A stretch of DNA of 64,000 bases from Chloroflexota bacterium (GTDB lineage: Bacteria; Chloroflexota; Dehalococcoidia; Lucifugimonadales; UBA2985). Below the pieces are notes generated by a model. The model had not been told where the DNA came from. It did not search any database and saw only the letters and a program-made list of their open reading frames with translations. This document shows positions 19,425-41,717 of the stretch, piece after piece (position 1 is the first letter of the stretch; the number at the start of each line of letters is the position of its first letter). The DNA lies in NCBI GenBank assembly GCA_028877205.1, contig JAPPHY010000011.1:17218-81217 (forward strand), in the 5' to 3' direction. A program made the position numbers and the translations under genes.

Positions 19425-19498
19425 TGGGCCGTCAGGGATTCGAACCCTGGACTCCCGGATTAAAAGTCCGGAGCTCTAACCGGCTGAGCTAACGGCCC
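19425..19498 (-). tRNA. tRNA-Lys (anticodon UUU), CCA not encoded
   Basis: Hand fold of the reverse complement: GGGCCGT-TA-GCTC-AGCCGGTTA-GAGC-T-CCGGA-CTTTTAA-TCCGG-GAGTC-CAGGG-TTCGAAT-CCCTG-ACGGCCC-A. Confidence 0.9.
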
Positions 19499-20381: not shown

Positions 20382-20456
20382 TCCCCGATAGCTCAGCGGT
20401 AGAGCGGGCGGCTGTTAACCGCTAGGTCGTAGGTTCGAATCCTACTCGGGGAGCCA
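20382..20456 (+). tRNA. tRNA-Asn (anticodon GUU), CCA encoded
   Basis: TCCCCGA-TA-GCTC-AGCGGTA-GAGC-G-GGCGG-CTGTTAA-CCGCT-AGGTC-GTAGG-TTCGAAT-CCTAC-TCGGGGA-G-CCA. Confidence 0.9.
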
Positions 20457-22918: not shown

Positions 22919-22994
22919 TGGTGGAGCTGGGGGGAGTCGAACCCCCGACCTCCTCAATGCCATTGAGGCGCTCTCCCGACTGAGCCACAGCCCC
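22919..22994 (-). tRNA. tRNA-Ala (anticodon GGC), CCA encoded
   Basis: Reverse complement GGGGCTG-TG-GCTC-AGTCGGGA-GAGC-G-CCTCA-ATGGCAT-TGAGG-AGGTC-GGGGG-TTCGACT-CCCCC-CAGCTCC-A-CCA. The G3:U70 Ala identity pair is present. Confidence 0.9.
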
Positions 22995-39424: not shown

Positions 39425-40069
39425 ATGACCGCAAGTGATACAGGCGCAAAGCTTGTTCCCGTCACCGTCTGGTACGACTACATCTGACCCTGGTGCTACG
39501 TGGGACTGGCCAGGTTGGACCAGCTTGAACAGGACTTTCCGCTCGACGTAACGTACAAGAGCTTCTACCTCAGGCCGGACATGCCCCCGGAGGGCATCGT
39601 GCGACAGCCGCGGGAGGGCGAACAGGTTGGATCGCCGCTGACGGGCCACCTGGGCGAGGTGGCTGAGGAAGCCGGTCTGGTGATGCGCCGCGCGCCGCTC
39701 ACGCCCAACACCCGTCTGGCCTTTGAGGCCTCCGAGTTCGCAAAGGACGCGGGCCTCTTCGAGCCGTTCCACCGGGAGTGCTACCGCGCATTCTGGGAGG
39801 ACGGAGCGAACCTCGGAGAGTTGGCAGTGCTCCAGCAGATCGGCAAGCAGGTGGGCCTGGATCCGGCCGCGATGGAGGAACGCCTGGCCGCGGGTCACTA
39901 CACCCCTGCCGCGCAGTCGCAGTACGAGGAGGCCCTTTCGATCGGCGTGAGAGGCATTCCGTCCTTCATCATCGGGCGGTACTTCTTCTCCGGAGCCCAG
40001 CCCTACGACCTCTTCAAGAGGGTGGCTGACATGGCGCAGAAGGAGGAGGCCGGCGAGGGCGAAGGCTGA
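39425..40069 (+). CDS. DsbA/FrnE-family thiol:disulfide oxidoreductase, predicted selenoprotein (in-frame UGA at 39485-39487 giving a U-P-W-C redox motif)
   Basis: ATG at 39425 preceded by RBS AAGGGAGGTG. It reads MTASDTGAKLVPVTVWYDYI-TGA-PWCYVGLARLDQLE, in frame with the ORF-track ORF 39500..40069. The family normally has C-P-W-C-Y at this spot. C-terminal GIPSFIIG...GAQP. Confidence 0.6.
39506..39523 (+). promoter_or_regulatory. Candidate bacterial SECIS-like hairpin downstream of the UGA
   Basis: CTGGCC-AGGTT-GGACCAG: a 4+2 bp stem with one bulged A, and a G/U-containing apical loop 25-29 nt after the UGA. Hand fold only. Confidence 0.3.
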
Positions 40070-40118
40070 CGCAACGCGGCCCAACAGAACTTTGTAACAA
40101 GAATCACATGGAAACCTC

Positions 40119-40148
40119 TTGCGTAGGCGGAAGCGCTCGGTGTATCTT
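40119..40148 (+). promoter_or_regulatory. Putative sigma-70-type promoter of the orphan small transcription unit
   Basis: TTGCGT (40119-40124), 18 nt, TATCTT (40143-40148). Confidence 0.3.
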
Positions 40149-40160
40149 GTGGGTACGCTA

Positions 40161-40176
40161 AGAAAGGAGGTGATCC
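40161..40176 (+). promoter_or_regulatory. Extended Shine-Dalgarno: 16-nt perfect complement of the canonical 16S rRNA 3' tail
   Basis: AGAAAGGAGGTGATCC is the reverse complement of GGAUCACCUCCUUUCU. A TTG start follows 9 nt after GGAGG. The 14-codon ORF at 40180-40224 encodes MLSDKRAVSEVSVA. Confidence 0.5.
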
Positions 40177-40280
40177 ATATTGTTATCTGATAAACGGGCT
40201 GTTAGTGAGGTGTCTGTAGCGTAAACGGCACTGGACGCAAGCCGCTCCGGTATCCGTTTGCGGAATACCGGCAGGCACCG

Positions 40281-40351
40281 GACCCCGAAGCTCCCGGCTC
40301 AAGTCCACCGGGACAGTCTTCAGACTGAAGCGCTTCGGGGTCTTTCCTTTT
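40281..40351 (+). terminator. Compound intrinsic terminator (long-range stem enclosing two hairpins, then a U-tract)
   Basis: GACCCCGAAGC (40281-40291) pairs with GCTTCGGGGTC (40332-40342). Inner hairpins: CCCGG/CCGGG (40293-40312) and CAGTC-TTCA-GACTG (40314-40327). Followed by TTTCCTTTT. Confidence 0.55.
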
Positions 40352-40568
40352 GCGCGATTTCAGGCGTGCAACCGCCGCATCATGCCGAGGCGATCAGGCA
40401 GTGAAATTGGTCATCAGGTCAACACGGGCGCGGAACTCTCACTGGCCGGACACTGACCCTATCAGTGTCCACAAGAGTTGACGCCTACGTCAGAGCTAAT
40501 TCAAGTGGACAGGCAACGTGAAACTGTCCAAATCTGTGTCCAAATCCGGTCAGAGGGAAACGCTGAAG

Positions 40569-41717
40569 CTAGTCGAAGCTCTTCAGCTCTCGTACGGTAT
40601 CCGCGTCCAGCTTCCTTATCACCGCCTCAACCAGGTCCACGGTCCGGTCGAAATCCTCTCGACTGATGATGCCGTTATGACTGTGCAGATAGCGGGTGGG
40701 CACGGCGATGTTGATGGACGGCGCGCCCTTGTGCGTTCGCTGCATTTCCGCTCCGTCTTCGCCATAGCCGCTGAGCACGTCGAACTGCACCGGGATGTCG
40801 TTCTCGCGCGCCGTGTCCACGAACAGATCCCGCAGCTTCAGGCTGGGCAGCATCGACGAGTCGTGCAGGAAGATGGCGGGGCCGCTTCCCACCTTTTCCT
40901 GCGCTTCCTCCTGCGAGATGCCCGGGTAGTCGCTCGCAACACCGGACTCCAGGTTGATCCCTAGGTCCGGCTCCACCGCGAAGCTGCTGGTGTGGGCCCC
41001 CCTGAGGCCGACCTCCTCCTGCACGGTGGCGACGCCGTAGAGCGTGTTGGGCGGCGGCGACTCCCTGAGGCGGCGCATGACCTCGACGATGACGGCCAGG
41101 CCAACGCGGTCGTCCCACGCCTTCCCAAGGTATAGCGCGCCGCCGTTCAGTTGCGTGAACCGGCTGTCCGGAGCTATGGGGTCGCCGGGCCGGATGGCTA
41201 GTCTCTCCTCCGCGTCCTCCTTGCTGGATGCGCCCACGTCTATGAACATCTGCTCGCGCTTGAACAGCTGCCCGCGTGCCTCCGCCGTCATCACGTGGGG
41301 CGTCTTCACGCCGGTGACTCCCAGCACGGGGCCATTCCTGGTCATGATGACCCATCGCTGGTTGATCAGGGCCTGGTCCAGCCAGCCGCCCAGGGGGAGG
41401 AACATCACGTATCCTTCCTTGGTGATCAGCTTGACCATGAGGCCCACCTCGTCCATGTGGGCGGCCAGCATGACTCGCGGCGAGCCGCCATCCTCGCCCA
41501 GCCTCCCGATGAGCGAGCCGATTCCATCCGTATCCAGTCCGTCGCAGAGGCCGGACAGCTCGCGCTGCATGATGGCCCGTACCGGGCCCTCGAAACCGGA
41601 CGGGCCGTGGGCGTTGGTCAGCTCCTCCAGCAGAGATTCGACGTTGTCCATGGCTTGCACTCCTGGTAGCGTGGTAGGGCGTAGCGTACTCGCAAATGGC
41701 GCGGTGTCAAGCTCCAC
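40569..41717 (-). CDS. M42 family aminopeptidase (FrvX / glutamyl aminopeptidase-like)
   Basis: LTNAHGPSGFEGPVRAIM...LAAHMDEVGLMVK...ATVQEEVGLRGA. Confidence 0.88.
   Translation of the reverse strand: MELDTAPFASTLRPTTLPGVQAMDNVESLLEELTNAHGPSGFEGPVRAIMQRELSGLCDGLDTDGIGSLIGRLGEDGGSPRVMLAAHMDEVGLMVKLITKEGYVMFLPLGGWLDQALINQRWVIMTRNGPVLGVTGVKTPHVMTAEARGQLFKREQMFIDVGASSKEDAEERLAIRPGDPIAPDSRFTQLNGGALYLGKAWDDRVGLAVIVEVMRRLRESPPPNTLYGVATVQEEVGLRGAHTSSFAVEPDLGINLESGVASDYPGISQEEAQEKVGSGPAIFLHDSSMLPSLKLRDLFVDTARENDIPVQFDVLSGYGEDGAEMQRTHKGAPSINIAVPTRYLHSHNGIISREDFDRTVDLVEAVIRKLDADTVRELKSFD

Follow-up and report, generated by a model that had tools for sequence, protein, structure and literature searches.

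The rreB and rreR RNAs of Alphaproteobacteria ("ribosome-regulated expression") are small messenger RNAs (mRNAs) of which rreB is 165 nt long and carries a 17-nt Shine-Dalgarno sequence (SD) and a 14-codon open reading frame (ORF) (Hahn et al., RNA Biol 2017, PMC5711450). The rreB RNA sediments together with 30S subunits; its long (17-nt) SD and its GTG start keep its translation weak, and removal of the start codon stabilises it (PMC5711450). Another small bacterial RNA, Ms_IGR-5, was first reported as a transcript of Mycobacterium smegmatis, IGR-5 being ncMSMEG15794c (PMC10454040). It has been validated by RNA-seq in Streptomyces lividans and is a small RNA (sRNA) transcription unit in S. 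avermitilis. Ribosome footprints have been reported on it in M. abscessus and M. smegmatis (PMC4974804). In the literature searched, no function is reported for Ms_IGR-5, no M. tuberculosis name is given to this RNA, and no paper was found on an sRNA aimed at the anti-SD. Here we describe a locus in a 64,000-nt stretch of DNA from a Dehalococcoidia (Chloroflexota) genome (contig JAPPHY010000011.1, hereafter "the window"). Positions 40155-40351 of its + strand are a free-standing gene for a folded RNA, with its own promoter and a Y-shaped terminator at its end.

This element matches the Rfam family RF02471 (Ms_IGR-5) at 40155-40349 (+) over the full length of the model (1-184) and scores 45.5 bits in cmscan (gathering score 45; E = 4.6e-07 over the 64-kb window). 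A chance small nucleolar RNA match aside, RF02471 is the one Rfam family at E <= 1 in the region 39900-40700. The window has the family layout at 40161-40224, with a long SD (..AAGGAGGUGRUCC) followed by a short ORF that ends ..GAG GUG NNN NNN NNN stop. The same arrangement is found in the Rfam consensus line and in the Mycobacterium, Micromonospora and Streptomyces loci which were found by a pattern search and reach 95-176 bits with the RF02471 model. One acidobacterial locus scores 51.6 bits, and the remaining pattern loci fall below the RF02471 cut-off and are claimed by no other Rfam family. In Ms_IGR-5 as in the window, the parts follow one another in the same order, from an ACAC-type 5' end to the long SD and an ORF of about 12-14 codons ending ..EV..*, and then to a stop-codon helix, GAAUNCC, a CAG.CACC strand and a branched terminator; the family structure leaves AAUNCC..CAG.CACC unpaired. 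Both are single-copy and free-standing. The differences are that the host belongs to the Dehalococcoidia, whereas the Rfam description of Ms_IGR-5 is actinobacterial (a description and not a structural criterion), that the score is marginal next to those of the actinobacterial members, and that the P1 hairpin is shifted and weaker than the family's (AUC/GAU, not GUCC/GGAC). In addition, the SD is a perfect 16-mer where most Ms_IGR-5 relatives have G-U wobbles, and there is an extra conserved alternative hairpin, P2'. We consider it almost certain that the element is a Chloroflexota member new to the Ms_IGR-5 family. The first-pass annotation, made from the letters of the window, had called the unit an orphan, which the Rfam match contradicts. 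By its own account, an Rfam hit explaining the region would refute it: the hit is there, but the family has no assigned function, so the RNA has been named and not explained.

A leader complementary to the 16S tail and a frame folded into the RNA

Homologues come from covariance-model searches and from a pattern scan with one genome per species, which gave at least 120 loci across several phyla. Counts that draw on the scan cover the matches listed (at least 120 loci), and the set of 141 homologues used below is made of 120 loci among the matches listed and 21 covariance-model relatives.

The leader contains a 16-nt complement of the 3' tail of 16S rRNA, and this complement is exact against the genome's own 16S gene (L001), which ends in ...GGATCACCTCCTTTCT. 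Elsewhere in the 2.0-Mb assembly (63.9% G+C), the 16-nt match occurs only as the antisense of the 16S gene. The next-longest matches to the tail are one 13-mer and two 12-mers, and 99% of the GGAGG-containing sites in the genome match 5-8 nt of it; the chance expectation of a 16-mer is about 0.001 in 4 Mb (both strands). The duplex between the SD and the 16S tail is computed at -28.4 kcal/mol, compared to -8.7 for GGAGG alone, and opening the site is computed to cost 5-8 kcal/mol. Among 133 distinct homologues, nearly all changes at the SD positions left free by the pattern are exchanges between A and G opposite U, or between C and U opposite G. Pairing of 15-16 nt with the 16S tail is therefore kept possible in 131 of them, and the substitutions preserve this pairing. 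The second, internal SD-like GAGGUG ends 9 nt before the stop codon, with three sense codons between GUG and the stop, and its duplex with the 16S tail is computed at -9.6 kcal/mol. In the minimum free energy (MFE) structure, the SD also pairs with the 3' end of the RNA itself (40162-68 with UCCUUUU at 40345-51), but this helix was dropped, as the tails vary among relatives while the SD side is invariant.

The frame is conserved: an ATG, GTG or TTG is found 6-16 nt after GGAGG, in frame and with no intervening stop, in 141/141 homologues (ATG 70, TTG 60, GTG 11). ORF lengths run from 11 to 21 codons, always differing by whole codons, and the stop alternates between TAG and TAA. In the class search, in which the stop was unconstrained, every match has it exactly three codons after GAG GUG. 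TAG is the stop in 108/120 pattern loci among the matches listed, for a pattern that admitted TAA or TAG only. No TGA stop occurs in the 21 covariance-model homologues or the class matches, despite their G+C-rich genomes; the stop lies inside P2. Across phyla, peptide identity is limited to ..EV.. near the C-terminus, and the N-termini are unrelated. Before T stands R, W or G, and in each case the codon is NGG, so that GGAC is retained; the E-V-x codons (GGUGNCUGN) supply the 5' strand of a helix of 9 bp. It is probably the loading of ribosomes that matters, and not the peptide.

The nucleotides of the ORF form one strand each of three helices, P0, P-LR and the stop-codon helix P2. The 5' strand of P0 is the counterpart of an ACAC motif that is conserved at the 5' end in other phyla. 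P-LR is the long-range pairing of the CAG.CACC strand with the ORF, which is absent from the Rfam structure line and is backed here by covariation: in a 95-sequence multi-phylum alignment, 98.4% of its cells are paired, with changes on both sides at 5/9 pairs, and it is part of the single-sequence MFE structure of 76/95 homologues. Its 3' strand, NCAGNCACC across homologues, is located 45-90 nt downstream, between GAAUNCC and the terminator. Compensatory variants are many in all, and include GGUGACUGC/GCAGUCACC, GGUGGUCAU/GUGACCACC, GGUGACCAC/GUGGUCACC, GGUGGCUAC/GUAGCCACC and GGUGACGGC/GCCGACACC. A four-helix model has 84.6% of its positions paired, compared to 32-47% when the 3' partners are slid, and its covariation score is reached by 0/500 shuffles. 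The three stems of the terminator show compensatory changes in RNAalifold and are also present in the single-sequence fold. That fold has an energy of -83.8 kcal/mol for the whole RNA (z = -4.7 against shuffles).

Around the stop codon, the same nucleotides can be arranged in two ways. P2, which is the RNAalifold consensus on two families, has 91.2% of its cells paired in 19 relatives, with double changes at 3 pairs. The alternative hairpin P2' has 91.8% of its cells paired in the same number of relatives, with double changes at 4 pairs; at one of its pairs, 8 sequences have CG and 8 have UA without any mismatch, and this position is left unpaired when P2 forms. P2 and P2' overlap in their nucleotides and are mutually exclusive. 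A second family of the class retains P2' in other letters, GGGUUCCG/CGGAAUCC, a comparison made by direct reading in which a bulge present in one family only shifts the register. P2 leaves the motif GGAAUACC single-stranded, whereas P2' pairs it: with P2 formed, the unpaired probability is 0.84-1.0 for 40263-40269, while G40262 is itself paired in P2 (0.01).

Locus, neighbours and distribution

The features of the element are collected in Table 1.

Table 1. Parts of the RNA element and of its promoter region, with their positions in the window
Feature	Position	Strand	Basis or partner
-35-like box TTGCGT	40119..40124	+	sequence reading; TTGC block at equal distance in 21 relatives
-10-like box TATCTT, TG before it, 18-nt spacer	40143..40148	+	block GGTGTATCTT kept in relatives
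RNA element, about 197 nt, Ms_IGR-5 member	40155..40351	+	cmscan, fold, RNA-library contigs over 40139-40337
P0 5' strand GCUA	40157..40160	+	pairs 40203-40206; 98.7% of cells paired (alignment A1), UA to GC compensation; 93.1% (alignment A3)
Extended SD AGAAAGGAGGTGATCC, 16-nt complement of the 16S rRNA 3' tail	40161..40176	+	exact against own 16S end
14-codon ORF MLSDKRAVSEVSVA, TTG to TAA	40180..40224	+	in-frame start in all 141 homologues
P0 3' strand UAGU, inside ORF	40203..40206	+	alignment pairing
Second, internal SD-like GAGGUG (E-V codons)	40207..40212	+	invariant in relatives
P-LR 5' strand GGUGUCUGU, inside ORF	40209..40217	+	pairs 40271-40279; multi-phylum alignment
P2 5' strand CGUAAACGG (last sense codon, stop, 4 nt more)	40220..40228	+	pairs 40254-40262
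P2 inner hairpin, 40230-35 with 40246-51	40230..40251	+	MFE structure
P2' alternative hairpin CCGGUAUCCG/CGGAAUACCGG, 40247-56 with 40261-71	40247..40271	+	alignment pairing
P2 3' strand CCGUUUGCG	40254..40262	+	alignment pairing
Motif GGAAUACC (GAAUNCC in all phyla)	40262..40269	+	directly 5' of P-LR 3' strand
P-LR 3' strand GCAGGCACC, internal 16S-tail look-alike (UCACC type)	40271..40279	+	alignment pairing
Y-shaped intrinsic terminator	40280..40351	+	outer stem 40280-91 with 40332-43
Terminator inner hairpins	40292-97 with 40308-13; 40314-18 with 40323-27	+	RNAalifold
Terminator tail UUUCCUUUU, end TTTCCTTTT	40343..40351	+	sequence

Both promoter-like blocks and their spacing are kept upstream of the element in relatives. 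A start of transcription near 40155 is predicted from the -10-like box, and the Rfam match begins there too. A consensus promoter/terminator scan gives 0 sites at the element, its rules shutting out branched terminators and 7-of-12 promoters; the promoter is too weak for the consensus. The promoter proposed by the first-pass annotation, TTGCGT-18-TATCTT, is thus borne out by the conservation of its blocks and spacing but not by the scan. The rest of the self-contained unit which it described has held up, with all elements in place: the leader against the genome's own 16S 3' end, the TTG-initiated 14-codon ORF by its presence and conservation in homologues, and the 40247-40271 hairpin and Y-shaped terminator by RNAalifold and single-sequence folding, the former showing compensatory changes. 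The comparison with related genomes that it had called for shows the locus to be conserved, with covarying helices.

Contigs from a coral metatranscriptome (run X1, share 0.06) span 40139-40337 and leave the flanking genes uncovered; this is the only run that holds part of the stretch, and the contigs reveal no transcript ends and cannot exclude a DNA origin. They differ from the element at 0-5 positions and depart in sequence upstream of 40139, which suggests a close relative with another neighbour gene.

Upstream, at 39425-40069 (+), there is a gene for a DsbA-like thioredoxin-fold protein (Pfam DSBA, E = 1.2e-18 over 39500-40069), and such a gene precedes the RNA in at least 11 relatives. 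Downstream, an M42 peptidase gene at 40569-41717 (-) is convergent to the element. A SECIS-type structure serving the upstream, putative selenoprotein gene was rejected, as the element follows the stop codon of that gene and is preceded by a promoter of its own. The DsbA-like and M42 genes are the context in the Dehalococcoidia, where relatives L006-L022 have the M42 glutamyl aminopeptidase gene downstream and convergent. An M42 glutamyl aminopeptidase gene is also next to the element in Micromonospora (L036, L074, L103), upstream and on the same strand; this adjacency in two distant phyla could be chance or the remnant of an old synteny. In mycobacteria, the context is a class IV aminotransferase and a THAP4-type heme-binding protein. 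No neighbour gene is universal among the homologue loci, and synteny is seen at the level of lineages only. Downstream genes are convergent in 73/127 loci, and no theme unites the 88 Pfam families to which 105 downstream proteins belong. Because the downstream genes are heterogeneous and often convergent, the unit is free-standing and a role as an attenuator is unlikely; the first-pass annotation had also set aside attenuation of a downstream gene, and the next gene is indeed the convergent M42 peptidase. In the Bryobacterales-type Acidobacteriota loci L053, L060, L072 and L075, rpmE (ribosomal protein L31) is found 70-200 nt downstream on the same strand. A Chloroflexota genome of another class (L027, G173:C2, 230-2678) has a weak homologue (27 bits) with SD, ORF MSNGSCTAASHEVSA and terminator. 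It sits in a trans-translation neighbourhood, between a gene for an S41 tail-specific protease and smpB followed by tmRNA. The window also holds tRNA genes at 19425-19498 (-), 20382-20453 (+) and 22922-22994 (-) (Rfam RF00005, 65-74 bits).

With the Rfam model, full-length single copies are found in 19/24 genomes of the same family and in 1/16 from other families of the order. The pattern search of the class finds the element in 17/401 genomes, made up of 12/12 sampled from one other family plus a few that belong to a third; among these 401 genomes, the remaining sampled families of the class gave no match. A phylum-wide covariance-model search gives 2/151 genomes, but it is insensitive (16 candidates scored per genome) and is no evidence of absence. 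The control genomes Caulobacter vibrioides and Thermus thermophilus give sub-threshold RF02471 matches at E <= 1. Caulobacter is the source of the CC2171 sRNA. The actinobacterial carriers among the matches listed are Mycobacterium, Streptomyces, Micromonospora, Nocardioides and Nocardia. An RNA filed as an actinobacterial sRNA is also present in Chloroflexota, in Acidobacteriota (Terriglobia, Bryobacterales, Blastocatellia and Pyrinomonadaceae among the matches listed) and, among the same matches, in Rokubacteria, Zixibacteria, Myxococcota, Thermodesulfobacteriota and one Heliobacteriaceae metagenome-assembled genome. Most of the non-actinobacterial copies are missed by gene callers and by Rfam annotation. 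The design is the same throughout: the RNA has the potential to pair with the whole 16S tail, its fold is built around a tiny frame, and its 3' domain is conserved. Since few regulatory RNAs are conserved so widely, this argues for a basic ribosome-linked role.

Explanations and their standing

On balance, the locus probably encodes a mini-mRNA of the Ms_IGR-5 family on which ribosomes dock and which changes its conformation as they load and translate, a reading that we hold with moderate confidence. A 30S subunit would dock very tightly on the leader through the whole 16S tail. The translating ribosome would then melt P0, P-LR and the stop-codon helix, and upon reaching the last codons it would cover the 5' strands of P-LR and P2, freeing the 3' strand. 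This strand could refold into P2', burying GGAAUACC. The RNA would alternate in this way between two forms, one closed and free of ribosomes, the other loaded with a ribosome. Ribosome loading, and not the 14-residue peptide, would set the shape of the RNA, and probably its stability or its encounter with a partner as well. A translation-driven switch in this lineage is a supported inference, and the two exclusive stop-codon helices, both kept by compensatory changes, provide a concrete handle on the effect of ribosome loading. A broader version is more tentative, and we regard it as doubtful: Ms_IGR-5, possibly with the rre RNAs as convergent analogues, might be a multi-phylum ribosome-operated switch that reports free-ribosome or translation capacity to a partner reading GAAUNCC or the stability of the RNA. 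If true, such RNAs would form a new class of trans-acting sensors, with the ribosome itself as ligand.

Several points weigh against the mini-mRNA switch. For the window RNA itself, what speaks for it is mainly computed sequence and structure evidence, the ribosome footprints coming from mycobacterial MS_IGR-5 and the 30S association from rreB, and no output was found for the proposed switch. P2' is clear in two families of the class, whereas in Actinomycetota the motif is buried in only some of the sequences when the 3' part is folded by itself; the switch may for this reason be lineage-specific. The block GAUAAACGGACU (D-K-R-T) is conserved in the class without an assigned helix, so that a role for the peptide is possible. 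The search pattern fixed AAGGAGGTGRT, GTGAGGTG and the position of the stop, and these are not independent observations in the set of at least 120 loci. The RF02471 score is only 0.5 bits over the cut-off. Finally, the sole RNA evidence here consists of two contigs from one metatranscriptome, which could be derived from DNA.

The first-pass annotation had suggested a very highly translated micropeptide, a dual-function sRNA, or an RNA that titrates the anti-SD or 30S subunits. The second and third of these may hold. As a complete explanation, binding of the 30S subunit or anti-SD is unlikely: the RNA would occupy the 16S tail as a sponge, as a place where idle subunits are parked or protected, or as a quality check on new subunits, and the ORF would only release or recycle the ribosome. 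The 15-16 nt of tail pairing preserved across phyla by wobble-compatible changes, the computed strength of the duplex, and the second SD-like GAGGUG at a fixed distance before the stop all agree with this, as does the finding that most rreB is recovered in the ribosomal fraction and that it sediments together with 30S (PMC5711450). However, short of extreme expression a single-copy gene cannot titrate ribosomes, which in the rreB case far outnumber the RNA even upon overexpression, with no effect on growth (PMC5711450). The conserved 3' domain and the two conformers are also left unexplained.

It is equally improbable that the locus is a micropeptide gene, in which the 14-residue peptide is the effector while the RNA structure and the oversized SD only tune its synthesis. 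Start, frame and stop are kept in all 141 homologues, the core D-K-R-T-x-[SR]-E-V-S-V is well kept within the class, and the RreB and RreR peptides are conserved inside their clades (PMC5711450). Yet only ...EV.. is common between phyla, and its codons are a strand of a covarying helix; where residues vary, the nucleotides are retained (R, W or G from NGG codons), and the peptides are 11 to 21 residues long with unrelated N-termini. Synthetic RreB and RreR are unstructured, and putative overproduction of RreB (14c construct) has no effect on growth (PMC5711450). The micropeptide is the least supported of the three early suggestions, as nucleotides are kept while residues vary, the E-V codons lie in a covarying helix, and an over-long SD lowers rreB translation (PMC5711450).

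A classical base-pairing sRNA, acting on mRNAs through a single-stranded seed such as GAAUNCC with an incidental ORF, is very unlikely. RF02471 is catalogued as an sRNA and forms a discrete sRNA transcription unit in Streptomyces, and GAAUNCC is conserved and predicted to be single-stranded. But an incidental ORF would not retain its start, frame and stop in 141/141 sequences from several phyla, no target is known, and a 6-7 nt seed kept across phyla without conserved neighbours would be unusual. Least credible of all is a leader-peptide attenuator or cis-regulator of a neighbour gene, since the attenuator-like succession of short ORF, alternative helices and terminator, and the same-strand rpmE in four Bryobacterales-type loci and smpB-ssrA in one Chloroflexota genome, are set against a convergent next gene here, the convergence and Pfam diversity of downstream genes elsewhere, and competing helices P2/P2' that exclude the terminator stem.

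Comparison with known systems

The mini-mRNA that we favour shares with the trp and his leader-peptide attenuators a short ORF, and a ribosome occupancy that would choose between helices upstream of a terminator. It differs from them in having no regulated downstream gene, no competition with the terminator stem and no run of regulatory codons. Like the dual-function sRNAs SgrS/SgrT, RNAIII/hld and SR1/SR1P, it is a small transcript that is both a structured RNA and the mRNA of a tiny peptide. In these, however, the ORF is a module apart from the base-pairing region and has an ordinary SD, whereas the ORF of the window RNA is the structural core, and no target is known for it.

The closest published analogues are rreB and rreR (PMC5711450). 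There is no detectable rre homology (Rfam CC2171) in the window RNA, for which RF02471 is the only family at E <= 1 between 39900 and 40700. The rre complementarity runs into the GTG start, while the complement in the window ends at 40176, 3 nt before the TTG at 40180. The long-range helix between the ORF and the 3' domain, the second GAGGUG and GAAUNCC are not described for the rre RNAs. Association with 30S has been shown for rreB alone among these, and for the window RNA it is represented by the computed duplex energy. Neither has a conserved genomic context or an assigned function. The window RNA nevertheless has what defines the rre RNAs, a 16S complement of at least 16 nt directly upstream of a short ORF in a free-standing unit. 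The rre RNAs and the window RNA are thus alike as free-standing mRNAs of about 165-200 nt, with an ORF of 14-18 codons, an SD that is partly in a hairpin, and a 16-17-nt complement to the whole free 16S tail.

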